Origin: a virus | Direction: 5' to 3' (one strand) | Length of the DNA: 42,988 bases | Virus record (IMG/VR): IMGVR_UViG_3300045988_130630 | Shown here: positions 261-37,103 of the stretch, piece by piece | Numbering within the stretch: position 1 is the first letter of the stretch | Layout of the letters: each line of letters opens with the position of its first letter | Position numbers and translations under genes: made by a program | The notes under the pieces: model-generated | Database searches by the model: none | Told to the model about the DNA's origin: nothing | What the model saw: only the letters and a program-made list of their open reading frames with translations

Positions 261-1190
261 TTAACAAATTCTAAAAGTTGTTGTATCCAATTTCAAATCA
301 TTAATTGATAATTTATCTAAATGAAAATATGGGATTCTAATTAACGGGATGTTATTTTCTTTACACCATTGATTTTTAAAAGCATCATGTTCTTTTGTTT
401 TTTCAAACTTTTCTAATGTATTCCAACCAGTTCCAGATTGATAATGCTATATTCCATCAAATTCAATTAAATAAGAATTATCAATATAAAAATCAAATTT
501 AGCTTTATGGTTAGTATCCTAAAATTTACAATTTTCAAAAGTTTTTTCACAAATATACTAAATATTATGTTCTTTTAATAAAGAGATAATTTTTTCCTAA
601 CCTGCTGATTGTAAACAACCACAAGATTTACTTTGTCCTTTTCTTAAAGTAGTTCCTGATACAATTTTTTGATTGCCACAAGAGCATTGGCATAACCACA
701 TAGCAGTATTATGCTAATTAGATCCACTACGTTTTAACACTGTCCATCGACCAAAAGTTTGTCCTGTTAAATCAATTGTTGTAAGTTCACCGATCTTTTT
801 ATGAATATAACAACCACATGAAATAACGGCGCCACTTACTAAACCATCTTTACGAATACTTTTAATAGTTCCACAATCACACTAACATTTCCAATAAGTA
901 TGCCCTTTTCCTTCTGTTCTATCATATCCTAAAACTGTTAGCATACCGAATTTTTTGCCTGTTAAATCTTTTAACAATTTTAAACGTTTCTAACATCCGC
1001 ATGAAGTGGTATGATTTGAAGTTAAATGAGACGCAGAAACTACTGTTTTATTACCACATTCACATTGGCATAACCAATATGGTCCGTTCCTTGGGTCTTC
1101 AACTCGATATAAAACTGTTAATTTTCCAAAATGCTAATTAGTCAAATCTTTTGCTCGGCCTACTGGAATCTATTTATAAATTTTTTCCAT
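261..1190 (-). CDS. TAG-recoded protein with three Cys-rich Zn-ribbon repeats and a C-terminal Vsr/DUF559-like (PD-(D/E)XK) endonuclease motif; putative homing endonuclease
   Basis: A 309-codon frame is open only if its 9 in-frame TAGs are read through; it has no TAA or TGA until 263. There is a strong ribosome-binding site (AAGGAG) before the ATG at 1190. The protein has three repeats of FG.LTVL...YW.C.C.CGN...SCGC. The C-terminus is KFDFYIDNSYLIEFDGI(TAG)HY, with the TAG at the conserved Gln of EYDGxQH. Confidence 0.6.
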
Positions 1191-6415: not shown

Positions 6416-6730
6416 ATGATATATGAAAATATAAGAGGAGGAAAGGGAAATCCTTCAATAGTAAAATTTATGAGAGGAACGCAAGAATAGTTTGATAAGA
6501 TGGATAAAACAAATATGGTAAAACCTGATTTATATTTAAAAGATGACACTATTTATTTTGTTATTCCAGATAATACAAAACCAATTAAGGTAAAGTATGA
6601 TGATAGAAAAGTAGAATGGAATGAATCAGGAGTAGGAAGTTTAGTTAAAAATAATGATAGACCTGAATCAATAGAAGAAAATCCATTTTTACAAGAGTCA
6701 ATTAACTCGGATACTACGTATCCTCGTTGA
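6416..6730 (+). CDS. TAG-recoded hypothetical protein (104 aa, 1 TAG); C-terminus ..SDTTYPR
   Basis: AAAGGAG ribosome-binding site; the ATG at 6416 is in frame with track ORF 6500-6730 through one TAG. Confidence 0.5.
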
Positions 6731-6919
6731 TAAGGGTATTATTGACTTCGGGCATAAATGCCCTCGTTGATAAGGGCTCTACTTGATTTATAATAAATAA
6801 TATATTATAATATATATAATAAAAGAAAAAATGAAATGAAAAATAATACCCCGTAGGCAGGGAGGATCGTAGATCCGAGTCGCCTGCCCGCGTGGCGAAC
6901 GCAAAATGAAAGTAAGGAT

Positions 6920-7309
6920 TTGAAGATTGAAATGAAATTTACAACTGAAGAATTAAAGAAGAATAATGGAGAAAAGGTAGGCGTCTTCCGCAATTGGAAT
7001 GTAATCGCAACTACTAAGAAAGAGTTCTTTAATAGAGAGAATACGCAAGGCGCATACCTTATCTGGGACGACTGCAATAAGTTGGTTTTTAATGGTAAGG
7101 TTGTTGGTCGAATTACCGAGCAAGGTAAGGTGAATTATATCGAGAATGAATATAGATATGTGAAGCCGGTTCTGGAAACTTCGGGCACAAGTGCCCTCGT
7201 TGATAGGGTTGCTCCTGGATCAGAAGATGTGGATCTTAGTAAGCGCACGCTTGCTGATGACATTCTTGATAGTGCGTTTAAAATAAAGTTGGAGGAGCTT
7301 TTAGTGTAA
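6920..7309 (+). CDS. hypothetical protein (129 aa, standard code) carried inside the insertion
   Basis: Supplied ORF track; weak ribosome-binding site; contains an internal repeat copy. Confidence 0.35.
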   Translation: MKIEMKFTTEELKKNNGEKVGVFRNWNVIATTKKEFFNRENTQGAYLIWDDCNKLVFNGKVVGRITEQGKVNYIENEYRYVKPVLETSGTSALVDRVAPGSEDVDLSKRTLADDILDSAFKIKLEELLV

Positions 7310-10019: not shown

Positions 10020-10700
10020 AATTCCTTTCTTTGGCGGTAGGTCGCTACCCTTTTGATATTATTGAGTATACCACACTTTGGAGTGCTTGTCAAGAGGTTT
10101 CGCAAACTTTTCACACGAATTACTACCCCGACCTGACGGATAATTTATTGTTTGTTGATTCAATCTATTTGTCAGCGGAAAACCGCGTCAAGGATAGTTG
10201 GTTCAATCAAACTCACTTTCGCGTTCAACGTTTGGCTTTACAACGTGGTGTATTCTGTTTACTTCCTATACTTTCTCAAGGTCGCGCGCCCTCGGATTTC
10301 TTGGGCTACTCCCTCTCGACATTTTCTATTGTAGCACACTCGCTGGGATTTGTCAAGAGGTTTTCAAGAAAAAACTCATGAATTTTTTCTTTTATCCCGT
10401 GCGTTCCGCTCCGAAGAGACCTTAACGTAATAGGCGAACGGTCTATTGCTACTTCCAACCGTAGCCCCACACCGACCTGTGGCTCAGGGGTTCCCCTCTT
10501 GACATTATTTATTGTAGCACTTTTCGCACTACTTGTCAAGAGGGAATTTCAAATTTCTTTGAAAACGGGTCAGTTACCGAGTTATCACACCCATCAGCGA
10601 AGCCGTTCGGCAATTCACTGTTCCCTCTTGACATTATCCATTATAGCAGATTGCCCATAGATTACAATTGACAAAATAACCAAATTACGGGAAAAAATTT
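10020..10700 (-). promoter_or_regulatory. Tandem array of four sigma70-type promoters (-35 hexamers at about 10085, 10360, 10525 and 10660 in plus-strand coordinates) with no convincing downstream ORF; three place ATGTC(A/G)AGAGGG 2-5 nt after the -10
   Basis: Reverse-complement reads CCTCTTGACA, 17 bp, TACAAT, then aaATAATGTCAAGAGGG. Repeated three times; the first copy drives gene 9636-10013. Confidence 0.45.
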
Positions 10701-19461: not shown

Positions 19462-19586
19462 TTATTTACCTCATCTTTCTGTTCCCTTGGAACAATTATA
19501 ATATAACACACCCTTAGAGATTTGTCTATTGACGGATCGCACAAAATTGGGAAAAATAATTTGTGCAAATTTTCGCAACTTTTTGC

Positions 19587-19615
19587 TTGATAAATTGCTG
19601 ACCCTGTGATATAAT
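19587..19615 (+). promoter_or_regulatory. Plus-strand promoter (TTGATA, 17-bp spacer, TATAAT) of module F, firing into the palindrome CCGGGCGCG..CGCGCCCGG (19623-19649)
   Basis: Read directly. Confidence 0.5.
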
Positions 19616-19832
19616 GGAAATTCCGGGCGCGTGGGCCGTGCGCGCCCGGCCGAACGACCATTGTTAAAATTTTAACAAAAATAAAATAGAAAGGGCGCGG
19701 TAATTATCGGCTACCGCGCAAACCATAGTATGAAAAATTTGTTTACTACTTCAAGAGGCTTACCATTTCCTCTTGACATGATTATAATACCACAACGGGG
19801 CGAGTTTGTCAATAGTTTTTTGAAAAAAATTT

Positions 19833-19860
19833 TCAGGCGAGATAATTAAATCTCGCCTGA
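19833..19860. terminator. Terminator hairpin TCAGGCGAGAT/ATCTCGCCTGA
   Basis: Read directly. Confidence 0.55.
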
Positions 19861-19863
19861 AAA

Positions 19864-20070
19864 TTATTCGTCCCAAATAGCTCCCGCAATCCAAAAGTAT
19901 TCATAGCGGAGTTTCGACTGAAACGCAAATAAAGCATCTGCGATTTCTCCACCGATTTCGCGGTCATCTGCCACGGGAAGCGTCTGACTTTCTTTCGCAA
20001 TTCTTTGAGCCAACTTTTCAAGGGCGTCTGCCTGTTCTCTCAAAGCCTGCGGGATAGGTTTTTCATTCAT
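19864..20070 (-). CDS. hypothetical protein (about 68 aa, start MNEKPIPQ)
   Basis: AAGGGGGAAA ribosome-binding site. Confidence 0.45.
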   Translation of the reverse strand: MNEKPIPQALREQADALEKLAQRIAKESQTLPVADDREIGGEIADALFAFQSKLRYEYFWIAGAIWDE

Positions 20071-20419
20071 TATTTGTTTCCCCCTTTGCAAAATTAGATG
20101 TTAGCTCTAACGTATGTCCGCATTTATCACAATACCAATAGTAAAAAACTGTTCCATGCCGACCGTGAGAAGCATTTACAAATTCCATTTCATTTCCGCA
20201 GATGGAGCAATAGCCGTCATTCCATGCCTTTTTATCGGCATTGTGTTCTGCAATTATCATGCCCACCATACCATAGCCAAGGGCGCATGAAATGAGAAGA
20301 CCAGCCAACAGTCTGGCTATTGGGTGAGACTTTTCCATGTTGCACCAACAGATAAGGCAAATGAACATTGCCAGAACTGCGCTGATGATTCCGCCACAAA
20401 TTAAGAATTCTGCTCCCAT
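20063..20419 (-). CDS. membrane protein with a C-terminal CxxC...CxxC zinc ribbon (about 118 aa)
   Basis: Track ORF with the start taken at MGAEFLICGG. Confidence 0.5.
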   Translation of the reverse strand: MGAEFLICGGIISAVLAMFICLICWCNMEKSHPIARLLAGLLISCALGYGMVGMIIAEHNADKKAWNDGYCSICGNEMEFVNASHGRHGTVFYYWYCDKCGHTLELTSNFAKGETNNE

Positions 20420-20422
20420 TTT

Positions 20423-20494
20423 TATTTCCCCTCTCCGCATTTAACGCATTGAGCGTGTGTTCCGCACTTCCCATCACAATAAGGACATTCCATT
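20423..20494 (-). CDS. 23-aa zinc-ribbon micro-protein MECPYCDGKCGTHAQCVKCGEGK
   Basis: AGGGGAATAAAAAAATG ribosome-binding site and start. Its stop overlaps the start of the downstream membrane Zn-ribbon gene. Confidence 0.35.
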
Positions 20495-20570
20495 TTTTTA
20501 TTCCCCTTTCCTTTGATACATTAAGTATAGCAGAAAAAGGGCTTTTTGTCAAGCCCTTTTTCTTATTTTT

Positions 20571-20927
20571 TTATTCTTTTTCTCGAATGGAATAATAAAC
20601 CTTACTCCCTCGCGGCCTGCGTTTGAGTTTATGGTCGAGGTATAACTGCATACAATACCAAGTGAATTTGCCGTTGGCATACTCATAGCCATACTTTTTG
20701 AATGCCATAAACTGCATTTCAGTCGGCGTGATAGGTCTGCCCGCCTCGTTCAGCAGTTCAAAGACGAGTTTAATCATCTGCTGATTTTTCCATTCGCGTT
20801 CCTCGCGGTCGGCTTTTAAGTCTCTTTCATATTTGTCGCAAGCGTGTTCCGCGATACTCAGATCAATGGGCGAGAGAGTGCCCGACGCGATAGCCTTTTT
20901 CAAAACTTCATAGATATCCTTGTTCAT
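20571..20927 (-). CDS. hypothetical protein (118 aa)
   Basis: Supplied ORF track; promoter at about 20950-20990. Confidence 0.5.
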   Translation of the reverse strand: MNKDIYEVLKKAIASGTLSPIDLSIAEHACDKYERDLKADREEREWKNQQMIKLVFELLNEAGRPITPTEMQFMAFKKYGYEYANGKFTWYCMQLYLDHKLKRRPRGSKVYYSIREKE

Positions 20928-21026
20928 TGTAGTTTCCCCTTTCCTTTATTGTGCTTTTATTATAGCATCTGTTTTTGGATTTGTCAAGGGCTTTTTGGAA
21001 AAAGAGGGAAAAATTTCCCTCTTTAT

Positions 21027-21299
21027 TTATCCCCAATAGACCGAAAGAACGCCGTCAATGTAGCTGGCTTTATAACCATAATTCTGCATGATATTTTTGC
21101 AAGCCTGCTTGACGCCCTTTTCATTTAATGAAGCAAGATTGCACTCATAAACTGTTTCTCCCGTTCCTGCCACACGCTCAATTTCCGGCATGATATGGTC
21201 TTCGATAAACGCACATGCGAGGGCATTATTTTTAGCTTGGATTTCTCTGCGGACTTCTTCGGCCTTGCGCGTCATTTCATAAGCATATTTAATTTCCAT
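21027..21299 (-). CDS. hypothetical protein (90 aa)
   Basis: Supplied ORF track. Confidence 0.5.
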   Translation of the reverse strand: MEIKYAYEMTRKAEEVRREIQAKNNALACAFIEDHIMPEIERVAGTGETVYECNLASLNEKGVKQACKNIMQNYGYKASYIDGVLSVYWG

Positions 21300-21364
21300 G
21301 TTGTTTTCTCCCTTTCCTTTGATGCTTTTATTATAGCATATAGGGCTTGTTTTGTCAAGCCTTT

Positions 21365-21493
21365 TTAAGAAATTTCAAAAATTTCTTCGTAGCCATCGTC
21401 CCATGCCTGTCGGCATTTCGTGTTATCTTCATTAGTGTATTCATCATAGCCGAAGCCCATGGATTCAACACGTCCTACAAAAATCCATTTCAT
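21365..21493 (-). CDS. small protein (42 aa) MKWIFVGRVESMGFGYDEYTNEDNTKCRQAWDDGYEEIFEIS
   Basis: AAAGGGGATAATTAAATG ribosome-binding site and start; consensus promoter at 21526-21554. Confidence 0.45.
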   Translation of the reverse strand: MKWIFVGRVESMGFGYDEYTNEDNTKCRQAWDDGYEEIFEIS

Positions 21494-21525
21494 TTAATTA
21501 TCCCCTTTCCTCAACTTCTGATACT

Positions 21526-21554
21526 ATTATACCCCACAGGGTGAGAAATGTCAA
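21526..21554 (-). promoter_or_regulatory. Consensus sigma70-type promoter (TTGACA, 17-bp spacer, GGTATAAT)
   Basis: Read directly. Confidence 0.6.
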
Positions 21555-21562
21555 TAGTTTTT

Positions 21563-22363
21563 TTAATTATTTTCTGTAATGTATTCCCATCTTAACCGTT
21601 CTCCTGTATCCGGGTCTTTACCGGCTGTTTTTAATTGTCCGCGCAAACAACGACCAATAGCATCTTTGTATGTATTGTAGTATGCTTCGGCTTCTCTTAC
21701 TGATAGAAACTCTTTGCCATTATTCAAGCATCTAATTCGTTTACCGCTCTTTAATTTGTTTGCCTGTGGCCCCAATGCCAAATTTTTCTTTGTTTCTTCT
21801 GGGTGCCGTTCTCTCCATTCAATCAATGCTTGTTTGCCTTGTTCTCTGTATTGTTGCGCTTTTTCTGGATGTGCAGCAATCCATTGTTTTAATACTTCTG
21901 GATTGCCTGTATTACATTCAGGATGTTCTTTTTGCCACTCATGGCATTTTTTTATATTTTGTTTACCCAATTTAGATACAATTTCTTTATGTTCATTCTA
22001 CCATTTTTTTACAGCATCTATCCGGCGTTGTTGAAATTCTTGTGCTTCTTTTGGGTGTTCTTGTAAGTATAGGTGGAAATACTCAAAACCACCACCATCA
22101 CCGCCACAGGCTAAATTGTAAAATTCTTCACTATTGACAGCGTTGTATTTTTCAATGTATTGCTTTTCTAATTCGTTGGCTTCTTCTTTTGTCTCGCAAG
22201 TTGCTAATGTAATTTTAGAAAAATTTTCTCGTCCATACTTTTTTATTGCTTCTCGTAAAATTTTCCCACTACCTAAATAATAATCATTCTTTTTAGATAA
22301 TTTGTGCTATCCTAAATATTTTTTATCATTGACTAAATTAGTAGTCAAATAAATTTCATACAT
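21563..22363 (-). CDS. TAG-recoded GIY-YIG homing endonuclease with a C-terminal NUMOD-like helix-turn-helix (266 aa), in an AT-rich island inside the GC-rich early block
   Basis: N-terminal MYEIYLTTNLVNDKKYLG(TAG)HKL, where the TAG encodes the Gln of the YIGQ motif. Further features are ..E..E..YI..Y and a C-terminal ..KRIRCLNNGKEFLSVREAEAYY...IGRCLRG..KTAG...W.YI. There are two in-frame TAGs and no other stop until 21565. GAAAGGA ribosome-binding site. The supplied track ORF 21563-21970 is the C-terminal part. Confidence 0.65.
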
Positions 22364-22402
22364 AATAAAAAATTCCTTTCTGCTTCATTCTATTATAATT
22401 AA

Positions 22403-22448
22403 AAATTGCGGCGTTTGGTTTAATAGTCTTTGACCAAACGCCGCAATT
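22403..22448. terminator. Terminator with a 17-bp stem (AAATTGCGGCGTTTGGT / ACCAAACGCCGCAATTT) followed by T8
   Basis: Read directly. Confidence 0.6.
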
Positions 22449-22452
22449 TTTT

Positions 22453-22761
22453 TTAACAATAAACCAAACTCAAATTTGACCACTTCAAAATGGAAATTTG
22501 ATTGTGTTCGCGCCCAATCTGTAAGGCTTCTTTCTTAGTGTTGACCCGCTTAGACTTATCAACGAACCAAGTATTATTGCTATACCACACACCGCAGTTT
22601 CCGCCGAAGTCCTTAACCGCATTGATAGCTTCGCGGGCGGTCTTGCACTCAACGCCGTCGGTAGCAACCTGCCAGCCGGACTTGTAGTTGATTTTCTTGC
22701 CATATTTGAGGGTCATGCCGTCGTTTTCAGCGAGTTTGAGAATAGAACGAATGTTAATCAT
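22453..22761 (-). CDS. hypothetical protein (102 aa)
   Basis: AAAGGG ribosome-binding site; promoter at about 22805-22850. Confidence 0.5.
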   Translation of the reverse strand: MINIRSILKLAENDGMTLKYGKKINYKSGWQVATDGVECKTAREAINAVKDFGGNCGVWYSNNTWFVDKSKRVNTKKEALQIGREHNQISILKWSNLSLVYC

Positions 22762-22933
22762 GTTGTAAATCCCTTTCCGGTTTGGTAGGTTTTCCTTCCC
22801 TTACTGTGATTATAGTATAGCACCGATTCGGGATTCTGTCTATTGACGCTTTGCACAAACTTTTGCCATAAAAATTGTTGAACTTGCCTATTGACAAAAA
22901 CTCGGCGCGCCAGGTCCGTTCGCGCGCCGGCCG

Positions 22934-22962
22934 ATTATACCACAAAGTTTTGAAATTGTCAA
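22934..22962 (-). promoter_or_regulatory. Minus-strand promoter of module G (TTGACA, 17-bp spacer, TATAAT); the palindrome CGGCGCGCC..GGCGCGCCGG lies at 22903-22930
   Basis: Read directly. Confidence 0.5.
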
Positions 22963-22974
22963 TAGGTAAAATGC

Positions 22975-23010
22975 ACAAAAAAATCTCCCCATTTTTGGGG
23001 AGATTTTTAA
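22975..23010. terminator. Bidirectional terminator (ATCTCCCCA/TGGGGAGAT); same hairpin family as 13391-13411
   Basis: Read directly. Confidence 0.6.
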
Positions 23011-23026
23011 TTTAAAAAATTTAATT

Positions 23027-23266
23027 TTAGCCATCGACATAAACGATAAGGACATCATCTTTGGCTTTCAGACCGCTGACCGGCAATCCCAGCACCCATT
23101 CTTCGCTTGCGTCCAGCACATCACCATTCAGAGTCATACGACCTTTGCGGTCTTTGAGGTAGCGCCCGCAAGTGTTTTCATTTATCACTTCGATGCCGTT
23201 CCCCTCATAGAACATCAGTGCGCCTTTTACCAGACCAATCACATTTTTAACCATGCCCAAAGTCAT
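23027..23266 (-). CDS. hypothetical protein (79 aa)
   Basis: Supplied ORF track. Confidence 0.5.
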   Translation of the reverse strand: MTLGMVKNVIGLVKGALMFYEGNGIEVINENTCGRYLKDRKGRMTLNGDVLDASEEWVLGLPVSGLKAKDDVLIVYVDG

Positions 23267-23382
23267 TTTGTCAACCTCTTTCGTCTTTAATGTCGTTCCC
23301 CTTGGAACAATTATAGTATAGCATAGGGTATAACAAAAGTCAACTTAAATTTTGGGATTGCCAATAGGTAAAATGTATAAAA

Positions 23383-23415
23383 AACTCGGCAGGATTTTGT
23401 ATGTCCTGCCGAGTT
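23383..23415. terminator. Terminator (AACTCGGCAGGA/TCCTGCCGAGTT followed by a T-run)
   Basis: Read directly. Confidence 0.55.
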
Positions 23416-23418
23416 TTT

Positions 23419-23613
23419 TTATTCTTCCCAACTCTCGATGACTTCGCCGGTCATTGCATCGATGATGTCAACCGAGAGGACGTTGTCTGCGTCCATGAAC
23501 TTCTGTCCGAGGGCGTATGCATTTTCCTGCCCCGCGACAGACACTTCATAGCGGTAATGCCCCATGTCGCCCGCCTTGTAATTGTAGTAGTTGACAGAAA
23601 CGATAAATAACAT
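23419..23613 (-). CDS. hypothetical protein (64 aa)
   Basis: Supplied ORF track; promoter at about 23640-23680. Confidence 0.5.
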   Translation of the reverse strand: MLFIVSVNYYNYKAGDMGHYRYEVSVAGQENAYALGQKFMDADNVLSVDIIDAMTGEVIESWEE

Positions 23614-23716
23614 TTTTTTTATCCCCTTTCCTTTTATGCTTTTATTATACCATAGATTCAGGATTTGTCAATAGTTTTTTGAAAAAAGTTTGAAAAAAAT
23701 AAGGGCGTTTCCGCCC

Positions 23717-23971
23717 TTATTCTTCATAAACGATAATGTTGTTGCCTTGCTTTTTAACGCGGGAATCTTCACAAAAGTGATAGGTAAAATCTGCGGAGAG
23801 ATGTTTGAGAAATTCGCGTCTCCATTCGCGGGACTTCGGCTCTAATTCAAAGAGAATGTAGAGCGTTTCCTCTAACCGGTCGAGGAAGTTTTCAGTGTCC
23901 GCGACGTTGAATTTGCCCGCGAGCTTTGGTTCAAGAGAAGCGCCAGTAGTGAGAATGTTGTAAGTAGTCAT
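23717..23971 (-). CDS. hypothetical protein (84 aa)
   Basis: Supplied ORF track. A terminator lies at 23697-23722 and a promoter at about 23995-24035. Confidence 0.5.
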   Translation of the reverse strand: MTTYNILTTGASLEPKLAGKFNVADTENFLDRLEETLYILFELEPKSREWRREFLKHLSADFTYHFCEDSRVKKQGNNIIVYEE

Positions 23972-24074
23972 GGTTTTTATCCCCTTTCTTATTGTATCTA
24001 CATTATAACATCTGCTTTTGGATTTGTCAAGAGTTTTTTATAAAAAAAATAAGGGCTTTTTTCAGCCCTTATTC

Positions 24075-24236
24075 TTAGCACTTGACCCACGTGTTGACTA
24101 ATTTCCGCTCAATGGTCGCGGGCTTCGTCAGAGTGTTCGCATACGCCTGTGCTTCTTTCTTAGTCTTAAAGTAAGTCGGCAAGTAGTAGCCAAGGCGAGC
24201 GCTGTAATTATCTTCGGTGTAAACTCTGTATTTCAT
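24075..24236 (-). CDS. hypothetical protein (about 53 aa, start MKYRVYTEDNY)
   Basis: AAAGGAAAGGGG ribosome-binding site. Confidence 0.4.
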   Translation of the reverse strand: MKYRVYTEDNYSARLGYYLPTYFKTKKEAQAYANTLTKPATIERKLVNTWVKC

Positions 24237-24328
24237 TCTTTGTTTTCCCCTTTCCTTTACTATAATTATAATACCACACACCGCGAAGAATGTCAAGTGT
24301 TTTTTTCAAAAAAAAGAGAAGTTTTTCA

Positions 24329-24448
24329 ACTTCTCTTTCTGCGACGAATTGCTTTCTTTACGCGGTGCTCCACGTATTCGATGAGCGCGCCCGCGCCGAT
24401 AACACCAACATAGATAGCGAGAAGAACAAGACCATCGTGAGTAGACAT
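24329..24448 (-). CDS. 39-aa membrane peptide MSTHDGLVLLAIYVGVIGAGALIEYVEHRVKKAIRRRKRS
   Basis: GAGGTAAATCAAATG ribosome-binding site and start; a hydrophobic helix with a basic tail. Not in the ORF track because it is shorter than 60 aa. Confidence 0.4.
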
Positions 24449-24633
24449 TTGATTTACCTCTTTCTTTCTTTTGATGATACTATTATAGCATTTCGGGATA
24501 GAAATGTCAAGTGAATTTTGGCAAAAAATGGAAAAAATTTTGCTTTAACGCTTTACTGTGGTAAAGTTCGGGCTGGGACGCCCTACACGCGCCCAACGGC
24601 GCAAGAGAAAGAGCGGGAAGCCCGCTCCCGCCC

Positions 24634-26132: not shown

Positions 26133-26243
26133 AATCAATTTTCAATTTCAGATTACGAAGAATAATTTAAATTTACTATAATCAATTTTCAATTTCAGAT
26201 TACGATTTAAAACAACAAATCAATTTTCGATTTCAAATCACGA
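26133..26243. repeat. Three direct repeats of 26 bp AATCAATTTTC(A/G)ATTTCA(G/A)AT(T/C)ACGA, starting at 26133, 26180 and 26218
   Basis: Read directly. Confidence 0.6.
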
Positions 26244-26334
26244 CTTCTTCTTTCTACCTCTTTTAGGTTTTTCACCCCACATAAGAGTGTATAATCCAGA
26301 AGTAGCAGAATACGTAGCTTTTTGCTGATACTTT

Positions 26335-27100: not shown

Positions 27101-27239
27101 AAATACTCCTTTTCTTTTTCTTATAATAATAATAAAATAAAAATAAAGAAATGTCAAGTCGTAGAGTGTGATTGGGCAAAAGTTATTTGTTTTGTTAAAA
27201 AAATTTTTAAATATAAAAAGAAAAAATTTTAAATGAAAC

Positions 27240-27268
27240 TTGACAAAAAAAATTTTTTCGAGTATAAT
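27240..27268 (+). promoter_or_regulatory. sigma70-type promoter (TTGACA, 17-bp spacer, TATAAT) at the head of the plus-strand late/structural operon
   Basis: TTGACA at 27240-27245 and TATAAT at 27263-27268, 24 nt before the GGAGG ribosome-binding site of gene 27293. Confidence 0.55.
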
Positions 27269-27292: not shown

Positions 27293-28348
27293 ATGATAAA
27301 ACTTGATTATTCTTTACAAACTCCAGAAGAAAGAAATCAATTAGTCGAACAAATTTTGGCTGATAATCCAGATCCGCCTGAAAAGTATTTAGAAATTTTA
27401 GCAGACTATTTGGTTCTTTGTATGGAGAAACAAGAAAAAAAGGAGAAAAAATTATTAACTGATAATCGTATGGCTACAGTTAATAAACGTGAGACTTCTT
27501 TTGAAGGTCTTGTTTCCCAACTCGAAAATGGCGAAGATGGAATTTATAATTTAATTACAGATAATAGAAATACAATATTTCAACCACATATTACAATTAC
27601 AAAAAAAGATTTAGAAGAGATACCAAGTTTAAATTAGTTAAGAGAAGCCATTAATGTTTGGGAGGCTAAATTAAAAGTAACAGAAGGCAAAGACGCTTTT
27701 GTTATTAAAAAGGCTCTTATTGAAATGCGTAAAGATTAGTATGTTATGAAAAATGCTTATCGTCGTCCAATAGTGCCTACAAAATTAACCAGATCAAAGT
27801 CTTATATTCCATTAGATGATAAAACATTTATTTTTGATGATGATGGTTTTCCCATTCCTGATGGAATTAGTTTATTAAGACCTGAAATATGTTCTGCGGT
27901 TTTATGTAATTATTCCCGATTAAAGCAAGATAGTTGGGGTGAATATGATAAAGACTTATGGTATTTAATGGAGGATTTTGATAAGCTTTGTGATAAAGCT
28001 TTAGCTAATTATCCTCTTTATGATAGAATCGTTGAATATAAAATTGATGGTTTACAAAATATTGACATTCAAGAGAAAATACAAATGGAATTTGGTATTA
28101 AACATAGCCTTGAATATATTTCAAGTTTATGGCGTAATAAAATTCCAAAATTAATTGCTTCGACTGCGGAAGATGAATATTTAGATAATTATTATTTAAA
28201 TGTTGAAAAAGGTAAATATAAAAAATGTAGTCGTTGTGGTAAAATAAAATTAGCTCATAATAAATATTTTAGTAAAAATAAAACAAGTAAAGATGGCTTT
28301 TATAGTATTTGTAAAAGTTGTCGAAATTCTAAGGCCAAAAAATCTTAA
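27293..28348 (+). CDS. TAG-recoded protein (351 aa, 2 TAGs) with a C-terminal CxxC..CxxC motif
   Basis: Track ORFs 27293-27637 and 27746-28348 are in the same frame and are joined by two TAG codons with no other stop. Confidence 0.55.
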
Positions 28349-28397
28349 TATTGTCCTTTTGTTTATAATAAATAATTGAAAGGAGAATATTTTATTT

Positions 28398-29585
28398 ATG
28401 GCTGAAACATATTATTGCGAAAAATGTAATCGCACAATGAATGGCACGGAATTTTATTCATCTAATAATTTAGAAAAATATCCTAATGATGGTAAATTCC
28501 CTATGTGCAAAAAATGTATGACAATGCACGTCGATAACTGGAATCCAGATACTTATTTATGGATTTTACAAGAGGCGGATGTTCCTTATGTTCCAGATGA
28601 ATGGAATAAATTAATGGAAAAATATGGACGCGATCCACAGTCTATGACCGGTATGACGATTCTTGGACGTTATTTGTCAAAAATGAAACTCAAATAGTTT
28701 AAAGATTATCGTTGGAAAGATACAGAATTTTTACAATAGATGGCAAATAATAAATTAGAGCAAACTATGAAACGTCAAGGGTATGATGCTCAATAGATTG
28801 CAACCGCTATTGAAAAAAGTTCTATTGCTATTCCAGAAGGAGAATTAAAAGAGCCGGTTTATGCTCCACCGCCTGATGCCCCTACGGAAGATTATTTCGC
28901 ACAATAGAGTGGTGAAGTGGAACAAGAATTAGATTTAACTGATGAAGACCGCACTTATTTAAGACTTAAATGGGGCAAAACTTATAAACCTGAAGAATGG
29001 GTTAAGCTTGAATAGTTGTATGAAGAAATGATGGCTTCTTATGATATTCAAGGTGCCGGACATAAAGATACGCTAAAACTAATATGTAAGACATCTTTAA
29101 AGGCAAATCAATTGATCGATATTGGTGATATTGAAGGTTTCCAAAAGATGAGCAAAGTATATGATAGCTTAATGAAGTCTGGTAAATTTACTGCTGCCCA
29201 AAATAAAGCAGAGTCAGGCGAATTTGTTGATTCAATTGGCGAATTAATTGAATTATGTGAAAAAGAAGGATATATTGAAAGATATTATGTTGAATAGCCA
29301 CATGATAAAGTGGACTTGACTATTCAAGATATGCAACGTTATACTCGCACTCTTATTGAAGATGAAACTAATATCAGCACAATGGTAGAAAAAGCTTTAC
29401 GCGAAAATGCTAAAGAAGATGAAGAGAAAGCAAAGAACGCGGAAAGCGATATTGTTGATGATGCTGATTTAAGTATTGAAGAACTTGAAAAAACTATTAA
29501 AGATAGTGATTACGCAGATTTTGAGGAATTTAAAGAATAGGAATCTGCGCAAGATAATGAGTTCTTATAGGGTTTAGATAAATAA
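28398..29585 (+). CDS. TAG-recoded protein (395 aa, 8 TAGs), N-terminal Zn ribbon; possibly the terminase small subunit by position
   Basis: Track ORFs 28398, 29016 and 29310 are in the same frame, joined only by TAGs, and terminate at the TAA at 29583. Its stop overlaps the terminase start (TAATG). Confidence 0.5.
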
Positions 29586-31324
29586 TGGCATTACAAGATT
29601 TACTGTAGTTAAGTGATAGCCGTAGAAAAATAGGTCTATCACCGGAGCGAGTAGAAGCGGTAATGCCCACTATCCGTAAATACGTTGCCTTTTGGAGAGA
29701 ATATCCTGATTTATTTGTAGATTTTATGGTGCGAGGAAGACGCACTGAAATAAAAGATGGAGAATTTAATTTTTATTTTTATTAGAGAGTATTTCTCCGT
29801 TCTGTTATGCGTTATTAGTATGTTTATGCGGTTTTTCCTCGTGCTTATTCTAAATCATTTTTGTCTGTTATGGCATTGATGATTAGATGTATTTTATACC
29901 CTGGCGCACATTTGTTCGTTACTTCTGGAGGTAAAGAGCAAGGTGCTAGTATTCTTCATGATAAAGTTCAAGAAATATGTGAACTTATTCCCAGCTTTAA
30001 TCGAGAAATTGATTGGAGTCGAGGAAAAACTCTTGAAGGAAAAGATAAAGTTAGATATGTATTTAAAAATGGTTCAGTTTTGGATAACCTTGCAGCGCGT
30101 GAAAGCACTCGTGGTCAACGTCGTCATGGTGGATTAATGGAAGAATGTGTTGGTATTGATGATGCCATTCTTCGTGAAGTTATTATTCCTGTTATGGCAA
30201 TTTCCCGTAGAGCTAAAGATGGCACTACTAATGAACAAGAGCCATTAAATAAATCACAAATTTATATTACTACTGCTGGTTATAAGGGCACATTCCCTTA
30301 TGATAGACTTATTGGTTTCTTAGTTCGTATGGTAACTTAGCCCGATCGTTGTATGGTATTAGGCGGAACATGGCGAACTCCTGTTGCAGTAGGATTACAA
30401 AGTAAAACATTTATTACTGACCAAAAGAATGAAGGAACTTATAATGAGGCTTCATTCGAACGTGAATACGAATCTAAGTGGTCAGGAACTGTTGAGGATG
30501 CTTTCTTTAATGGAGAGCATTTTGATAGAAATAGAAAACTATTATAGCCTGAATACGAAGCTTCTGGACGTGCGGGCGCGCAAGCTTATTATGTGCTTTC
30601 TGTAGATGTAGGTCGTAAAGGATGCGATTCAGTAGTTTGTGTATTTAAAGTAACACCACAAGCCCAAGGTCCAGCTATTAAATCTTTAGTAAATATGTAT
30701 ACTATGTCAGATGATCATTTTGAAGATCAGGCTATTAAATTAAAGAAATTATTTTATAAATATAAAGCTAAAACTTTGGTTATAGATGGTAATGGTTTAG
30801 GTATTGGACTTTTGGATTATATGGTAAAATCTCAAAATGATGAAGATGGTGAATTTTTACCTGATTTTGGTGTTGAGAATGATGATGATGGATATTATAA
30901 AAAATATCGCACACCAAATACTCAATTTGATGCTATGTATGTTATTAAAGCAAATGCTCCAATAAATACTGAATGTCATGCTAATGCTCAGACTCAATTA
31001 CAAGCGGGTAAGGTAAAATTCTTAATAGATGAGAGAACAGCTAAAGAAAAATTATTAGCTACTCAAAAAGGTTCAAAAATGACTCCTGAACAAAGGGCAG
31101 ATTATTTAAAACCATTTACTTTAACCTCCATATTAAAAGAAGAAATGATGAATTTACGCGAAGAAAATGAAGGTATTAATATTATTTTAAAATAGGCAAA
31201 TCGCGGAATTCGTAAAGATAAATTTTCGGCTTTCGAATATGGATTATATTATTTAAAACTTGAAGAAGATAAAAAGAAAAAACGTAAAAAGTTTAATGCG
31301 GCTGATTGGTGCTTTTTAAATTAA
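29585..31324 (+). CDS. terL: Terminase large subunit (579 aa, 5 in-frame TAGs)
   Basis: Track ORFs 29861, 30353 and 30593 are in frame. The ATPase region contains HLFVTSGGKEQGAS. The nuclease region LSVDVGRKGCDSVVCVFKV...LVIDGNGLGIGL has the RNase-H-like D..G..D and DxxG motifs typical of TerL. Confidence 0.65.
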
Positions 31325-31336
31325 GGAGGGTGGAAA

Positions 31337-31693
31337 GTGCGTGCTTCAAGAGGAGAAATTAAAATTGAAGAAATCTTAGAAGAAGCAGGACTACCTTTTA
31401 AAATGGAATACATCTTTCCAGATTTAAAAAGCCCAAGCGGGCGTCCGCTTCGTTTTGATTTTGTTATATTTGATGATGATGGAAAAATTGATTTCATTAT
31501 TGAGTATTAGGGAAAATAGCATTATGAAGCCAGTTCTAAATTTGGCGGAAAGCGCGGTTTATACCAGTAGCAATATAATGATAATCAAAAAAGACGTTTT
31601 TGCGCTTTACATGATTTTAGATTAATAGAGATTCCATATACCGACGAAAACCTTATTTCTTATGATTATATAATGAAATTAGCAGGTTATTAA
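31337..31693 (+). CDS. TAG-recoded small Vsr/DUF559-like (PD-(D/E)XK) endonuclease, putative free-standing homing endonuclease between terminase and portal (118 aa, 3 TAGs)
   Basis: AAGGAGGG ribosome-binding site then GTG. Contains ..RPLRFDFVIFDDDGKIDFIIEY(TAG)GK(TAG)HY.., i.e. the IEYDGxQH motif with the conserved Gln encoded by TAG. Confidence 0.55.
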
Positions 31694-31706
31694 AGGAGGT
31701 GGAACT

Positions 31707-33356
31707 TTGGATACGCAAGATCGTAATGAATAGATTCATGCTAAAGGTTTTGATATTTATAATGGTCGTTATGAATATAATTACAATGATACTATGGATT
31801 ATGCTAATAGAAAAATAAAAGTTGGCACAAAAACTTTAGATGATGCTATTTTAAAACTTGGTGATTATAGTAAGATTAGATACCCAGGTCAAAATCGTAT
31901 TATCACGAAACCTGATGTGCTTCGCGCGCTCGCAGAAAGAGATCTAAATGCTTTGCGATACATTTCTAATTTTTATTATGATATAAGTGGTGTATATCAA
32001 CGAGTTTGTAATTATGTTGCTTTTTTATATCGTTATGATTGGTATATTGCAGCCGAAACTTATGATGACAATGTAAAAGAAGAAAAAGTTTTAAAAGATT
32101 TTTATAAAATGTTGAATTATTTTGATAATAGCTATATTAAAAAGGTTTGCGGAGATATTGCTTTACAAGTTGTTAAAAATGGATGCTATTATGGATATAT
32201 AGTTCCTTCTGAGAAAAATCTAATTTTACAAGAATTACCAGTTAGATATTGTAGAACACGTTATAGTGTAAATAATACCCCAGTTGTTGAATTTGATATG
32301 CGATTTTTTGATACTTTTAGAGATATGAATTATCGTTTAAAAGTATTAAAATTATTCCCAGAAGAATTTGCTAAAGGTTATGTTCTATATAAACAAGGAA
32401 AGCTTGCTTTAGAAGAGGCAGTTGGATGCTAGCATACTGGTAGTTGGTATGTTCTTGAACCAGAAAATTGTGTTAAATTTAATATTAATAATAGTGATGT
32501 TCCTATTTTTGTAAATTCGATTCCTACTATTATGGATTTAGATGCAGCGCAAGATCTTGATCGCAAGAAACAAATGTAGAAGTTACTTAAAATTTTAGTC
32601 CAAAAGCTCCCAATGGATAAAAATGGTGATTTGATATTTGATGTTGATGAAGCCAGAGATATTCATAATAATGCCGTTTAGATGTTATAGAGGGCTATTG
32701 GAGTAGATGTTTTAACTACATTTACTGATGTAGATTCTATTGATATGTCTGATAAAAATACTACTACAACGACAGATGATTTAGCTAAAGTTGAACGTAG
32801 TGTTTATAATTCATTAGGTATTTCATAGAATTTATTTAATACTGATGGCAATATGGCTTTAGAAAAATCAGTATTAAATGATGAATCTACAATAAGAAGT
32901 TTAATTTTATAGTTTAATATATTCTTTAATAGAATTATTGAAAAAAAGAGTAGTAATAAGAAATATAATTTTAGATTTTATTTATTAGAAACTACTTAGA
33001 ATAATTATCAAACACTTTCTAAAATGTATAAAGAACAAGCACAAATGGGACAATCAAAACTATTGTCTTAGATTGCTCTTGGACATTCGTAGAGTTTTAT
33101 TCTTAATGCAGCTCATTTTGAAAATGAGATTTTACATTTAAGTGAAATTATGATTCCTCCTCTTATGAGTTCTACTATGGGTAGTGAAGATATTTTGGGT
33201 TTAAAAGGTTCATCATCTAATAATAAAACTCAAAATAATTCAGGAAGTTCAGGTTCTGGAACTGCTAAAGCTTCTAATGGCGAGGCAGGACGTCCAGAAA
33301 AACCTGATGACTAGAAAAGTGAAAAAACTATTCAAAATAAAGAAGCAATGAAATAA
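31707..33356 (+). CDS. Portal protein (about 549 aa, about 9 in-frame TAGs)
   Basis: AAAGGAGG ribosome-binding site then TTG at 31707, in frame with track ORF 31794-32432 and open to the TAA at 33354. Its size and position immediately after terminase support the call. Confidence 0.5.
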
Positions 33357-33365
33357 GGAGGATTT

Positions 33366-34946
33366 ATGAAACATACAAGTATTAAATTAAATACACCTTG
33401 TGAGTTTATAAATATAACTCCTGTAAATCCTTTAATTTCTAAATGCCAAATTAAGGTTTGTTATGTAGATGATAAACCTAATCGTAACAAAAGCGTAATT
33501 ACTAAAGATGTAGCGACTGAGATGGCTAATAGCCTTCCTGGTAGTCCTATTGTTGGCTTTTTTAATGAGAATGCTGAAGATTTTGAAGAACATAATAGGA
33601 TAATTGAATTATCTAACGGCGAATTTAGAATGAGAGATAATACTCGCCCTTATGGTTTTGTTGATCTTGGAGCTAAAGTTTGGTTTTAGAAATTTTTGGA
33701 TGATGGTGTTGCCGAACGTGAGTATTTAATGACTGAAGGTTATTTGTGGACTGGTTAGTATCCTGAATGTAAACGTGTGGTTGATAAAGGGAATAATCAT
33801 TCTATGGAGCTTGATGAAAAAACATTAAATGCTACGTGGGCAAAAGATAGCAATGGAAAACCTTAGTTTTTTATTATAAATAAGGCAATTATTTCTAAAC
33901 TTTGTATTTTGGGAGAAGAAAATGAACCTTGTTTCGAAGGCTCCCAAATCAATGTGAATTTTTCATTCGATGATGGTTTTAAGAACACTTTGTTCTCCAT
34001 GATGAATGAACTTAAAGAATTTATGAAAGAAGGAGGAGCCAAAGTGTTTACACAATACGCTGTTAATATTGGCGACAATTTGTGGAATTCTCTTTATTCT
34101 TATATTGAGAATAAGTATCCTGTCGAACCAAAGAATTATTGTTCTATTTATCGCATTGAAGGTGTCTGCGAAGATGGTGAACAAAAGTTTGCTGTTTTGA
34201 AGAATAAGCAGGATGAAAAATACTATCGTATGGATTTTTCTCTTGACGCAGAGAATTTCGTTCCTTCTGATACTTTGATTGAAGTAACTGATTATGCTCC
34301 TGCGGCTGAGCCTCAGTTTGCTCTTAATGCTGTAGAAGAATTTGAAAATGAGTATGCTTCAAAAAAGAAAGCAGAAGAGGACAAAAATAATAAATCAAAT
34401 AATCCTGACGGTGAAAATAAATCAGAGGGCAATGATAATAAAAAGAACCCTGATAATGGAGAGCCCTCTAATAAGTCTGATAAAGGCAACAACGGTGAGA
34501 ATGATGACGATGATAAAAAGAAAAAGAAAAATTATTCTCTTGAAGATGTTGTTGAATATACTGAACTTAAAGCTCAGTATGATGAATTATAGACTAAATT
34601 TGCAGCTCTTGAAACTGAAAATAATAGCTTGAAAGAGCAAATTGCTCCACTTGCTGAATTTAAAAATGCTGCTGAGAAGAAAGATAAAGAAGATATGATT
34701 GCTAAATTCTATATGCTTTCTGATGAAGATAAGGCTGATGTTGTTGAAAATATTGATAAATATTCTCTTGATGATATTGAAGCTAAATTATCTGTTATTT
34801 GTGTTCGCAACAAGGTGAGTTTCGACCTTGACGAAAATAATAAGCCCAATGGTGCTACTACTTTTAATTTGAACAATAATGGTTCAGAAGATGATGATAT
34901 GCCCGCTTGGGTGAAGGCGGCTTTTGCTACCGCCAACAAAAATTAA
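33366..34946 (+). CDS. TAG-recoded head-morphogenesis protein (526 aa, 4 TAGs) with an acidic, low-complexity, coiled-coil C-terminal half; putative scaffold or prohead protein
   Basis: Track ORFs 33366, 33909 and 34629 are in frame. It contains a KKKAEEDKNNKSNNPDGENKSEGNDNKKN stretch and ETENNSLKEQI heptads. Confidence 0.45.
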
Positions 34947-34963
34947 TAAGGAGGACATACTAA

Positions 34964-35890
34964 ATGTTTAAAGACTTTTTGAATAGTCATTTAGGTATCA
35001 AGGGTATCCCTAAGTCTCAGGCAAAGTATGTTGAGTTTGGTTACGGTCAGGTCGAGCCTAATCACCTTTCCGCGCAAAGAAATGCTCAAATCTATGCTCA
35101 ACTTCCTGCCAATAAAGAGATTGAGATTCTTGAAAACGGTCAGTTTGTAAAGTATGACTATGCTGCTAATGGTAACGGTATCGGCGAAGTCAACTTTACT
35201 GGCGAAGGTGAATGGATGCTCGTTTATAATGAGATTAAGCTTTATCGTGATCATCCAGATGGAACCAAGCAGTGGGATTGCGAATTTGCTATGATTAAAG
35301 ATGACTATCAGGCTCGTGTTTATAGCCCTTATGATTGGGAGCATACCGAGGTTGAATATGGTGGTCGTTTCTGGAATGGTGTTGATGAAAAGGGTCAAAC
35401 TTATAAGTTAATCGAGCAGACTGTTTCCGCTGATCAGGGCTTAAAGACTGTTACTATTGCTGGTCGTGTTTATGACGTTGTTGATAATAAGTTTACTTAT
35501 GATGGTAATGAATATACTCTTGATAGTAATCATCAGGTTGCTAAAGTTCCTGTAAAGTATTACTATGATAAGGTTCTTACTGATGTCCCTGACATGTATG
35601 AAATGAATTGGACTAATAATCCATATCATAAGTTAGGCATCTATCATGAGAAGTTCATGGAATCTGGCACTTCTATGGTTCCTCGTGTATTTAAGACCAT
35701 GATTGGTGATCTTTATACTACTAATATGATTAATGAAGATACTCTTGTTGTTGGAGATAAGCTTTCTCCTTCTGCTGATACAAAGGGTATTCTTAGCAAA
35801 ACTGGCGACGATTCAATGACCTGGCAGGTTGTTAAAGTTTATACTATGCCTGATGGTCAAAAGGGCGTTAAGGTAATGCGTATTAAGTAA
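34964..35890 (+). CDS. structural protein (308 aa, no TAG), capsid-associated
   Basis: Supplied ORF track; AAGGAGG ribosome-binding site; no TAG codon; lies between the scaffold-like and capsid-like genes. Confidence 0.5.
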   Translation: MFKDFLNSHLGIKGIPKSQAKYVEFGYGQVEPNHLSAQRNAQIYAQLPANKEIEILENGQFVKYDYAANGNGIGEVNFTGEGEWMLVYNEIKLYRDHPDGTKQWDCEFAMIKDDYQARVYSPYDWEHTEVEYGGRFWNGVDEKGQTYKLIEQTVSADQGLKTVTIAGRVYDVVDNKFTYDGNEYTLDSNHQVAKVPVKYYYDKVLTDVPDMYEMNWTNNPYHKLGIYHEKFMESGTSMVPRVFKTMIGDLYTTNMINEDTLVVGDKLSPSADTKGILSKTGDDSMTWQVVKVYTMPDGQKGVKVMRIK

Positions 35891-35907
35891 GAAAGGAGAA
35901 AAGGATA

Positions 35908-37017
35908 ATGTTAGATAAAAATAATTTAATTGCTCTTATGAAGCAAGTTGCTAAGGCTGATCCTTCTGCTCCTGTTGCTTATAGTTATGAGGGAAAAAAT
36001 CTTAGTTATGAAGCCTTGAATGAAACTCTTCGTAATGAAATGAATGAGTTGGCTGGCACTTACGCTCTTTATCGTGAAAATAAGAATCTTATTTTCTCTA
36101 TGATTGAGCAGACTCTTGATGAGGTTCTTCCTAAGAAAGTTATTCAGCAATATGATCAGTTTGCTGAGGTTAAGACTTTCGCTCAGGGTGATAAACCTAT
36201 CTTCCGTCGTCCTCTTAATAATCGTGCTCGTGCTAAGCAGTTTGTAACTCGCGTTGGTCTTGCTGGTATTTATGAAGTCTTCAAGCTCGGACCTAAAGAG
36301 AATGAAGCCTTCGAGGTACGTACTAGCGCTATCGGCGGAGCTGCTCAGATCGGCTTCGAAGAGTTCCTCGATGGTCGTGTTGATTTCGGTGAAGTAACCA
36401 AGATCATCATGGATGGTATGGATGAACTTATTTATAAAGAAGTCGCTGCCGCTCTTAGATCTTCTATCAATCAGCTTCCTCCTGCTAACCGCGTTGCGGC
36501 TGCCGGATTTGATGAAGCTGCTATGGATCGTTTGATCACCATTGCTTCTGCTTATGGTACTCCTACTATTTATTGTACTTATGAGTTTGCTGTTAAGATG
36601 ATTCCTCATGAGGCTTGGAGATATACTGAAGCTATGAAGAATGAGCTTTGGAATAATGGTCGTCTTGCTACCTATAAGGGCACTAAGGTTATTATTCTTG
36701 AGCAGGGCTTTGAAGATGAAACCAATACTCGTAAGGTTATTGATCCTGGTTATGCTTGGGTTATTCCTACGGGCGCTGATGGTAAGCCTGTAAAGATTGC
36801 TTTCGAAGGTGGCACTATTGTTGACGAGTTCAACAATTATGATCGTTCTCGTGAGATTTAGGTTTACAAGAAGGTTGGCGTAGTTTGCATGCTCGCTAAT
36901 AACATCTGTGCTTATGTTGATACTTCACTTCTCGGTCAGATGTATACTTGGAATTATGATGGAGTTACTGGCAAGGTTATCACTTATGATGGTCGCCTTA
37001 GTGGTGCTACTGTTTAA
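35908..37017 (+). CDS. putative major capsid protein (369 aa, one TAG near the C-terminus)
   Basis: Track ORF 35908-36861 extended through one TAG to the TAA at 37015. AAAGGAGAAAAGG ribosome-binding site. Immediately followed by a strong terminator. Position after the scaffold-like gene. Confidence 0.45.
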
Positions 37018-37034
37018 TTTAATATAAATTATTC

Positions 37035-37080
37035 CATGGGGAGAAGGGATTAAACTCCCTCTCCCCATATTTTTGTTTTA
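37035..37080 (+). terminator. Rho-independent terminator (GGGGAGAAGGG..CCCTCTCCCC followed by ATATTTTTGTTTT) after the capsid gene
   Basis: Read directly. Confidence 0.6.
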
Positions 37081-37103
37081 TGAGTAAAAGGAGAAATTGA
37101 ATA

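Follow-up and report, generated by a model that had tools for sequence, protein, structure and literature searches.

The window analyzed here is the whole 42,988-nucleotide (nt) stretch of a viral record in IMG/VR, IMGVR_UViG_3300045988_130630. Its minus strand carries a free-standing GIY-YIG homing endonuclease gene (HEG) at 21563..22363, which comprises 266 codons from an ATG at 22363-22361 to a TAA at 21565-21563. Within the frame, TAG occurs exactly twice (codons 19 and 122), and TAA and TGA are absent. Codon 19 (22307..22309, minus) stands directly after the YIG motif and codon 122 (21998..22000, minus) within KKW-Q-NEH, as placed by reading of the frame and by alignment of homologues. 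Termination at codon 19 would yield a mere 18-residue peptide, and standard-code calling of open reading frames (ORFs) recovered the C-terminal 135 amino acids (aa) alone (21563..21970), exactly as a preliminary description of this DNA had it. That description also presented the gene as an AT-rich island of about 800 bp on the minus strand, and at 34.2% GC the gene is indeed poorer in GC than its surroundings. The value of about 50% GC given for the neighbors was too high, however: we measured ~41% in the 2 kb on each side and 42.8% in the whole minus-strand block, with 50.6% reached solely in the adjacent gene's 5' part.

On its 5' side the endonuclease gene is preceded by a gene for a 102-aa protein of unassigned function (22453..22761, minus), which has no TAG and which locus comparison and alignment of its chimeric sequence identified as the constant upstream partner of the HEG. 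Directly after the stop codon of this gene (22455-22453), and thus upstream of the endonuclease gene, lies a hairpin at 22401..22451 (minus) with a 19-bp stem, a 13-nt loop, and flanking A and U tracts (-31.8 kcal/mol, z = -8.8). It is this hairpin that had been described as a terminator with a 17-bp stem immediately downstream of the endonuclease gene, where there is instead the promoter of the next gene. The hairpin was kept with compensatory changes in HEG-carrying loci (L057, L058, L059, L063, and L068) and was absent from HEG-less ones, and it has the look of an intrinsic terminator for the 102-aa gene that travels with the endonuclease gene. By folding it leaves uncovered the Shine-Dalgarno-like ribosome-binding site (RBS) of the endonuclease gene, AAAGGA at 22374..22379 (minus), which is located 10 nt before the ATG and recurs at the same place in all homologous loci. 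No sigma-70-like site with at least 9 of 12 matches was found in the 90 bp from hairpin to ATG, in agreement with the earlier statement that the gene has its own RBS and no consensus promoter.

Read with TAG as Gln, the protein matched the Pfam GIY-YIG model (PF01541) at 23.4 bits (cut-off, 22.6), which was the profile search proposed in the preliminary description as a check. With X at the TAG positions the same model scored 22.0 bits, slightly under the cut-off; SegE_GIY-YIG (PF19835), with TAG read as Q, reached 24 bits, just short of its cut-off of 25; and there was a match to phrog_314, “homing endonuclease,” at 2.7e-39. With its two in-frame TAGs, the gene therefore does encode a GIY-YIG endonuclease that needs two read-throughs, as had been claimed. 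Both GIY-YIG models matched 26 of 27 family members, a homology search returned full-length relatives at identities from 94% down to ~33%, and the closest annotated relatives were “Seg-like” genes at 26-34% identity.

The catalytic GIY-YIG domain occupies approximately residues 1-90 (22094..22363, minus; motifs EIY...YLG(Q)), as delimited by PF01541, by the invariant alignment columns, and by an AlphaFold2 model of P0001, a protein 94% identical to that of the window. Residues Y5, Y16, E66, and N83 were invariant in an alignment of 33 family members; no counterpart of I-TevI Arg27 was identified in the family alignment, in which Y29-x-GSG and K42 were invariant instead. The P0001 model (predicted local distance difference test score, 85.7) had its best Protein Data Bank matches in the I-TevI catalytic domain (1mk0/1ln0; probability 1.00, TM-target 0.62-0.68, root mean square deviation ~3 Å). 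The Gln at codon 19 had been called a residue of the catalytic motif: it does follow YIG and is conserved in the family, but it is not known to be among the recognized catalytic residues, and I-TevI has Ser there.

At the protein's opposite end, a putative DNA-binding region of approximately residues 205-262 (21578..21751, minus) is similar to the I-HmuI and I-TevI helix-turn-helix and comes after repeated “W..EHPEE” helices. Foldseek placed the C terminus of the P0001 model on I-HmuI (1u3e; probability 1.00, 72 columns), the family profile matched the I-TevI DNA-binding domain (1i3j) at residues ~178-241 with E = 0.034, and PF22083 matched 5 of 27 family members. The NUMOD Pfam models gave zero matches to the window's own protein at E values up to 1, so the NUMOD-like C terminus of the preliminary description is backed indirectly, by these structural and profile matches and by the name of an NCBI entry (see below), and not by a domain hit on the protein itself. 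On the strength of the model, the endonuclease is predicted to join an I-TevI-like catalytic fold to an I-HmuI/I-TevI-like C-terminal DNA-binding domain.

Both TAGs fall at Gln positions of the family. Codon 19 aligned with Gln in 24 of 26 database homologues, which had themselves been translated with TAG as Gln. When IMG/VR was scanned with the endonuclease protein by itself and with the alignment, no relative exceeded 38% identity over the full length, and the DNA of homologues was therefore taken from Logan and ENA contigs. In-frame TAGs numbered 1-6 in 11 of 12 such DNA-level homologues, in-frame TAA or TGA occurred in none of the 12, and there were no frameshifts; TAG positions were mostly lineage specific and often swapped with CAA or CAG. 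At codon 122, for instance, 4 homologues had TAG, 5 had CAA or CAG, and the remaining 3 had a different codon. Translation of the fetched DNA with table 11 failed to reproduce 11 of the 12 homologous proteins that were looked up, the exception being P0018 (L152, 436-1266), whose gene is without any TAG. The ratio of nonsynonymous to synonymous substitution rates (dN/dS) against L057 and L058 was 0.07-0.12 in codons 1-18, 20-121, and 123-266, with one exception (0.29 for the 18-codon segment against L058, from 5 substitutions). Because dN/dS was low in every segment, selection acts on the protein past both TAGs. In the structural block of the same window, 15 ORFs including TerL and the portal held 55 in-frame TAGs in 4740 codons. 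These sequence comparisons indicate that the TAGs are sense codons for Gln and that the full-length enzyme needs TAG decoding.

The exact TAG-as-Gln product is present in a public protein collection (P0080), on 4 contigs of which the longest spans 193 kb. The 90% cluster of P0001 and P0080 has 100 member sequences from many gut samples. Public entries made by code-11 gene calling hold the C-terminal 135 aa only, namely DAM27274.1 (“NUMOD1 domain protein”) at NCBI and, likewise, a 135-aa hypothetical protein on a 103-kb contig in IMG. A megablast search of positions 19500-24500 against 50,697 GenBank phage records gave zero matches.

To place the gene among related genomes, we compared 35 related IMG/VR loci found through the 102-aa protein, none of which carried the endonuclease gene (0/35 by blastn and tblastn). 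Three of them (L001, L002, and L034) offered clean empty sites, in which both flanks aligned with the window and 75 unrelated bp stood in place of its 896 bp of hairpin plus gene; the search for empty sites that had been suggested earlier thus did not contradict an insertion. Most other relatives had the next promoter within 8-50 nt after the 102-aa gene. The L003-type loci also lacked the 42-aa gene that comes next in the window, and the genes after the 102-aa gene varied between relatives. In the HEG-carrying Logan and ENA loci of the close family (HEG 47-94% identical), the HEG always came right after a 102-aa homologue, with a hairpin bearing compensatory changes and an RBS in between, and one HEG variant alone was represented by ~50 collection blocks with this linkage. 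The exception was L149 (43% identical), where the HEG is located behind a 150-aa gene. Nucleotide similarity of the window to HEG-carrying contigs was limited to 22765..21549 (~90% for the closest), and the flanks did not align.

The 102-aa gene itself is a chimera. Its nt 1-177 were 93-100% identical to HEG-less L003 and L004 and 63-87% (mostly 80-87%) identical to HEG-carrying L057, whereas nt 178-309 were only 37-60% identical to L003 and L004 (89% in the last 9 nt, through the stop) and 77-97% identical to L057. Variable sites and protein alleles put the left crossover at 22584..22590 (minus), where the protein changes from ...CGVW-LANGIYYVD of the HEG-less form to ...CGVW-YSNNTWFVD of the HEG type; alleles at this place were NNTWF, DGIWF, GIKYY, and similar in HEG-carrying loci and G(I/V)(Y/W)Y in HEG-less ones, with L001 as an exception. 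Limits of similarity put the right junction at 21549..21557 (minus), between the HEG stop and the following promoter's -35 hexamer (CTATTGACA): similarity to HEG-carrying loci ended at 21549-21558, and similarity to the empty-site loci L001, L002, and L034 began at 21557. The imported tract of ~1.03 kb (22584..21550) thus consists of the 3' third of the 102-aa gene, the hairpin, and the HEG, and it matched HEG-carrying genomes only, within a backbone ~90-95% identical to HEG-less relatives. The imported 3' part of the 102-aa gene has 35.9% GC and the 5' part 50.6%, and the crossover lies ~130-180 bp from the insertion point. This is the pattern that co-conversion would leave, with the nuclease as the presumptive cause, and the 102-aa gene is probably the carrier of the putative homing site.

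Perfect TTGACA-17-TATAAT promoters number at least 13 in the minus-strand block at 7.7-26.3 kb, and a TG-extended -10 is present in all of them except one. Among the block's 45 candidate genes (4302 codons) the endonuclease gene was the only convincing carrier of an in-frame TAG; one doubtful 60-codon ORF with a TTG start also has one. TAG was essentially unused as a stop codon in the block, with at most one doubtful exception (10276-10458), so that the block is readable under either code. The structural block, with 32.4% GC, differed in Gln codons (CAA/CAG/TAG, 109/30/55 in structural genes against 19/65/0 in the minus-strand block), which corresponds to 56% CAA and 28% TAG there and to 77% CAG in the minus-strand block; the endonuclease gene had 13/1/2. 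In composition, codon choice, and code, the endonuclease gene is hence of a “late” type and sits among genes of an “early” type, and the earlier view of a TAG-recoded gene inserted in a standard-code block held, as the gene is a compositional and coding outlier in a TAG-free block with host-type promoters.

Among the TAG positions of the endonuclease family, codon 19 stood apart. Nine of 12 homologues had TAG there, equivalent to ~7 of 10 lineages with aa identities of 47-66%, while L068 and L149 had CAG and L152 had CAA; all remaining TAG positions were lineage specific and turned over freely, and another conserved Gln column (position 200) was TAG in 1 of 9 and nearly always CAA. The TAG share among Gln-type codons was 19% for the family, 28% for the structural genes of the window, and 12% for the endonuclease gene. 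With lineages treated as independent, the binomial probability of at least 7 TAGs in 10 at codon 19 was 6e-4 at the 19% share and, estimated by hand under the same assumption, ~7e-3 at the 28% share. Synonymous divergence (dS) was already ~1 at 82% aa identity. Taken from the alignment, this suggests selection for an early amber at codon 19.

We consider it likely that the gene is a functional free-standing HEG of the I-TevI/Seg type in a TAG-to-Gln recoded gut phage family, that its surroundings bear a homing footprint with co-conversion, and that the amber at codon 19 couples its synthesis to the code switch. A standard-code endonuclease gene killed by two nonsense mutations would also be broken twice by table 11, would leave the 135-aa C-terminal ORF as the only call, and would appear in public annotations as that fragment; the low dN/dS on both sides of each TAG, the 12 homologues without frameshift, TAA, or TGA, the placement of TAGs at Gln positions in many independent lineages, and the 55 uses of TAG as a sense codon in structural genes of the same genome make such a pseudogene very improbable, and we excluded it on the grounds of purifying selection beyond the TAGs and of TAG as sense in the structural genes. 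Residence within a group I intron that interrupts a gene would fit many GIY-YIG enzymes, I-TevI among them, as well as the published recoded example in Agate phages (see below). Here the gene lies between two complete genes, and the 102-aa ORF has its own stop and aligns end to end with HEG-less homologues; Rfam returned no family for the whole window at gathering thresholds and, at E values up to 1, only generic hairpin noise and no intron or riboswitch in 21000-23000. With an intergenic location, intact flanking ORFs, and no Rfam intron, an intron-encoded origin has a negligible chance of being right and was rejected, and the gene is taken as free-standing. Another account would dispense with homing and see ordinary modular recombination through promoter/terminator cassettes of a hyperplastic early region, the protein being domesticated or otherwise used, for example, to exclude competing phages. 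The many perfect promoters, a number of them inside hairpins, the gene-by-gene differences of relatives at these cassettes, and the position of the right junction (21557-21549) on the promoter consensus all speak for it, but the left junction (22590-22584) lies inside coding sequence and not at a cassette, the HEG keeps the same 102-aa gene as its neighbor even where the backbones otherwise have no nucleotide similarity, and the HEG-carrying 102-aa alleles are altered right at the crossover region. Constant linkage and an altered target allele are both what one usually sees with free-standing endonucleases and their targets (PMC2988022), and we regard modular recombination without homing as unlikely.

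A narrower proposal, that TAG19 is a selected, positionally conserved translational gate that ties the synthesis of selfish nucleases to the phage code switch, is one that we advance tentatively and at somewhat less than even chances. If the mobile endonuclease were functional and the ambers were neutral codon drift in recoded phages, with timing left to transcription alone, one would expect composition and Gln codon usage to mirror the TAG-rich structural block, as they do, with a TAG share (12%) even below that of the block (28%). The free turnover of TAG positions other than codon 19 and the intact genes of L152 (no TAG) and of L068 and L149 (no TAG at codon 19) agree with such drift, and a second nuclease gene in the window, of the HNH type (261..1190), resembles plain codon usage with its 9 TAGs. 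Yet TAG19 was kept in ~7 of 10 lineages despite saturated synonymous sites, the other conserved Gln column was almost always CAA, and an amber at codon 19, whatever its origin, mechanically makes synthesis depend on suppression; drift as the whole explanation seems to us doubtful, though by no means far-fetched.

Several observations weigh against the code-coupled homing nuclease that we favor. ARAGORN found no tRNA gene in the 43-kb window and no tRNA(CUA) in 37 related loci, and the nearest described suppressor-bearing relative, phAss-1, has a TerL only 45% identical to that of the window. Locus L001 (IMGVR_UViG_3300045988_156660, 6001-6390) carries the HEG-type allele YSNNTWFVD without the HEG; a resistant allele is one possibility, a leftover from HEG loss another. 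The right junction coincides with the repeated promoter consensus, at which ordinary recombination is possible, and the labels “early” and “late” were assigned from promoters and gene content. The binomial figures given above are optimistic owing to shared ancestry, which the test ignores. Finally, some relatives manage without the amber gate: codon 19 is CAG in L068 and L149, TAG is missing altogether from L152, and in L065 the gene has a consensus promoter to itself. Given L152 and L065, the gate cannot be obligatory for the family. The homologue of L065 (9941-10813) has 4 TAGs and a TTGACT-17-TGgTATAAT promoter in place of the hairpin.

Under the reading of a code-coupled homing nuclease, the enzyme would cleave the 102-aa gene in its HEG-less form, the probable site being close to the stretch encoding ...GIYY... 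at the crossover, and repair would then copy the HEG plus the flanking 3' end of the target gene. Two Gln ambers stand in a frame under purifying selection, and the full-length enzyme for this reason requires TAG decoding, of which the ~44 surrounding genes have no need. The conserved amber at codon 19 would act as a translational gate that links nuclease synthesis to the phage code switch, a role we infer from how early and how unusually conserved this first amber is. Synthesis of the nuclease would be delayed relative to its neighbors even if the gene were transcribed by read-through of the upstream hairpin. The decoder is presumably a phage suppressor tRNA(CUA) encoded outside the window; it may lie elsewhere in the genome, the exact product being found on a 193-kb contig. 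That the nuclease is made late only, as the preliminary description proposed, is plausible, with the proviso that the window has no suppressor tRNA. TerL identities (47% to Enterococcus phages VRE9_4, H1, and EF1, 46% to Geobacillus phage E3, and 45% to phAss-1) place the phage, by sequence, with Firmicutes-type phages.

The likeness to known mobile nucleases is close in several respects. Free-standing endonucleases of phage T4 are inserted between conserved genes, are polymorphic in presence, and show co-conversion of flanking target sequence, and T4 homing endonucleases are held to late times by RBS-sequestering hairpins and late promoters (PMC2988022). The window's gene is organized like T4 SegA-G and I-TevI, with GIY-YIG at the N terminus, a long helical linker after it, and, at the C terminus, a DNA-binding domain that in the window's protein is a predicted helix-turn-helix, and it shares with the T4 Seg genes the insertion between conserved genes, the polymorphic presence, and flanks of the co-conversion type. 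Unlike them, it is only 26-34% identical to Seg-like genes, occurs in a Firmicutes-type gut phage, and has a frame that depends on ambers; also, its hairpin lies off the RBS, and any delay would come from the genetic code. The block's small genes are separated by near-identical strong promoters, many with hairpins, at mosaic boundaries, and they resemble in this the PeSL promoter/stem-loop cassettes that reportedly mediate modular shuffling in T4-type phages (Arbiol and coworkers, 2010). The likeness extends to this arrangement alone; the left junction of the endonuclease tract lies inside a gene and not at a cassette.

The regulatory idea is not new and has been put forward for recoded phages before: in Agate phages, a group I intron endonuclease recoded at TGA is located in an early gene, and its in-frame stops were argued to delay production until late (Borges et al., bioRxiv 10.1101/2021.08.26.457843). 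The two cases have in common a homing endonuclease placed where a recoded phage has its early, standard-code genes, and the present one is not a new kind of system. In the Agate phages, however, TGA is read as Trp, the enzyme is intron encoded, and the phages belong to another clade, whereas the present gene is free-standing and uses TAG for Gln, with DNA-level evidence of an empty site and a co-conversion tract and with a first amber conserved in position. The Agate study appeared later in Nature Microbiology (2022). A further point of reference is phAss-1 of the “Phassvirus” group, code-15 human gut phages with a tRNA-Sup-CTA inside an array of ~30 tRNA genes (PMC10607447). It shares the TAG-to-Gln recoding, and no annotated code-15 TerL is closer to the window's than its own; it is nevertheless distant, with its suppressor tRNA in a large array against no tRNA in the window, and no homologue of the window's endonuclease was reported for it, a LAGLIDADG enzyme being listed instead (PMC10607447). 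The location of its suppressor offers an analogy only, and the phage is too distant to bear on timing here.

The locus provides a well-documented natural case of a mobile nuclease dependent on stop-codon reassignment, complete with empty site, donor-type tract, crossover, and conserved first amber, and extends a single published mention (Agate phages; TGA, intron encoded) to a TAG-recoded, free-standing gene. If the gate interpretation is true, code switching is exploited also by the phage's genomic parasites as a timing and safety device, beyond lysis and structural genes, and the contrast of TAG19 with CAG19 would make a tractable system for timing the code switch in infection. Code-11 gene calling has left the family as truncated fragments in public databases.

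Two further signals flank the endonuclease gene. A bare TATAAT box (TATAATAGAA; 22392..22397, minus), with neither a -35 nor a TG motif in the promoter scan, could be a weak or phage-specific promoter or merely an AT-rich spacer. The same 10-mer occurs at 1204-1213, just upstream of the RBS of the HNH gene; TATAATAGAA before both nuclease genes was considered as a possible shared late-promoter motif, but in homologues the region is a degenerate AT-rich stretch after the hairpin, and no common motif was seen in upstream regions of the structural genes. Autorepression in the style of I-TevI was likewise dismissed, as the upstream region aligned with the HEG-less 102-aa allele no better than shuffles did. 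On the downstream side, the promoter scan located the perfect TTGACA-17-TATAAT promoter (21526..21554, minus) of the next gene (42 aa, 21493..21365), which is outside the mobile tract. Several promoters of the block have their -35 inside a hairpin loop, for example, GGGCTTGACAAAACAAGCCC, and the boundaries of the gene-by-gene mosaic among relatives fall at its terminator/promoter cassettes.

The HNH endonuclease gene (261-1190, minus; 309 codons, phrog_374 at 4.6e-61, 9 in-frame TAGs) adjoins TAG-free minus-strand genes (1286-4454). It is in the same situation as the GIY-YIG gene and would be another gated instance if the gate interpretation holds. The structural block (27293-42988) opens with a sigma factor gene, a YonG_N-like gene, TerL, and the portal. 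The sigma factor gene (27293-28348, plus; phrog_5767, 9e-55) is preceded by a host-type consensus promoter (~27233-27268) and contains TAG in frame at 2 codons, of which codon 115 is the first; this putative late sigma factor would accordingly itself require TAG decoding. An AT-rich island on the plus strand at 4800-7300 (23-30% GC) contains TAG-rich ORFs, such as one at 5229-5879 with 7 TAGs and no PHROG match. At the edge of the minus-strand block, an AT-rich zone holds 3 direct copies of a ~26-bp unit (AATCAATTTTCAATTTCAGATTACGA and variants; ~26133-26246), which could be iterons or operators.

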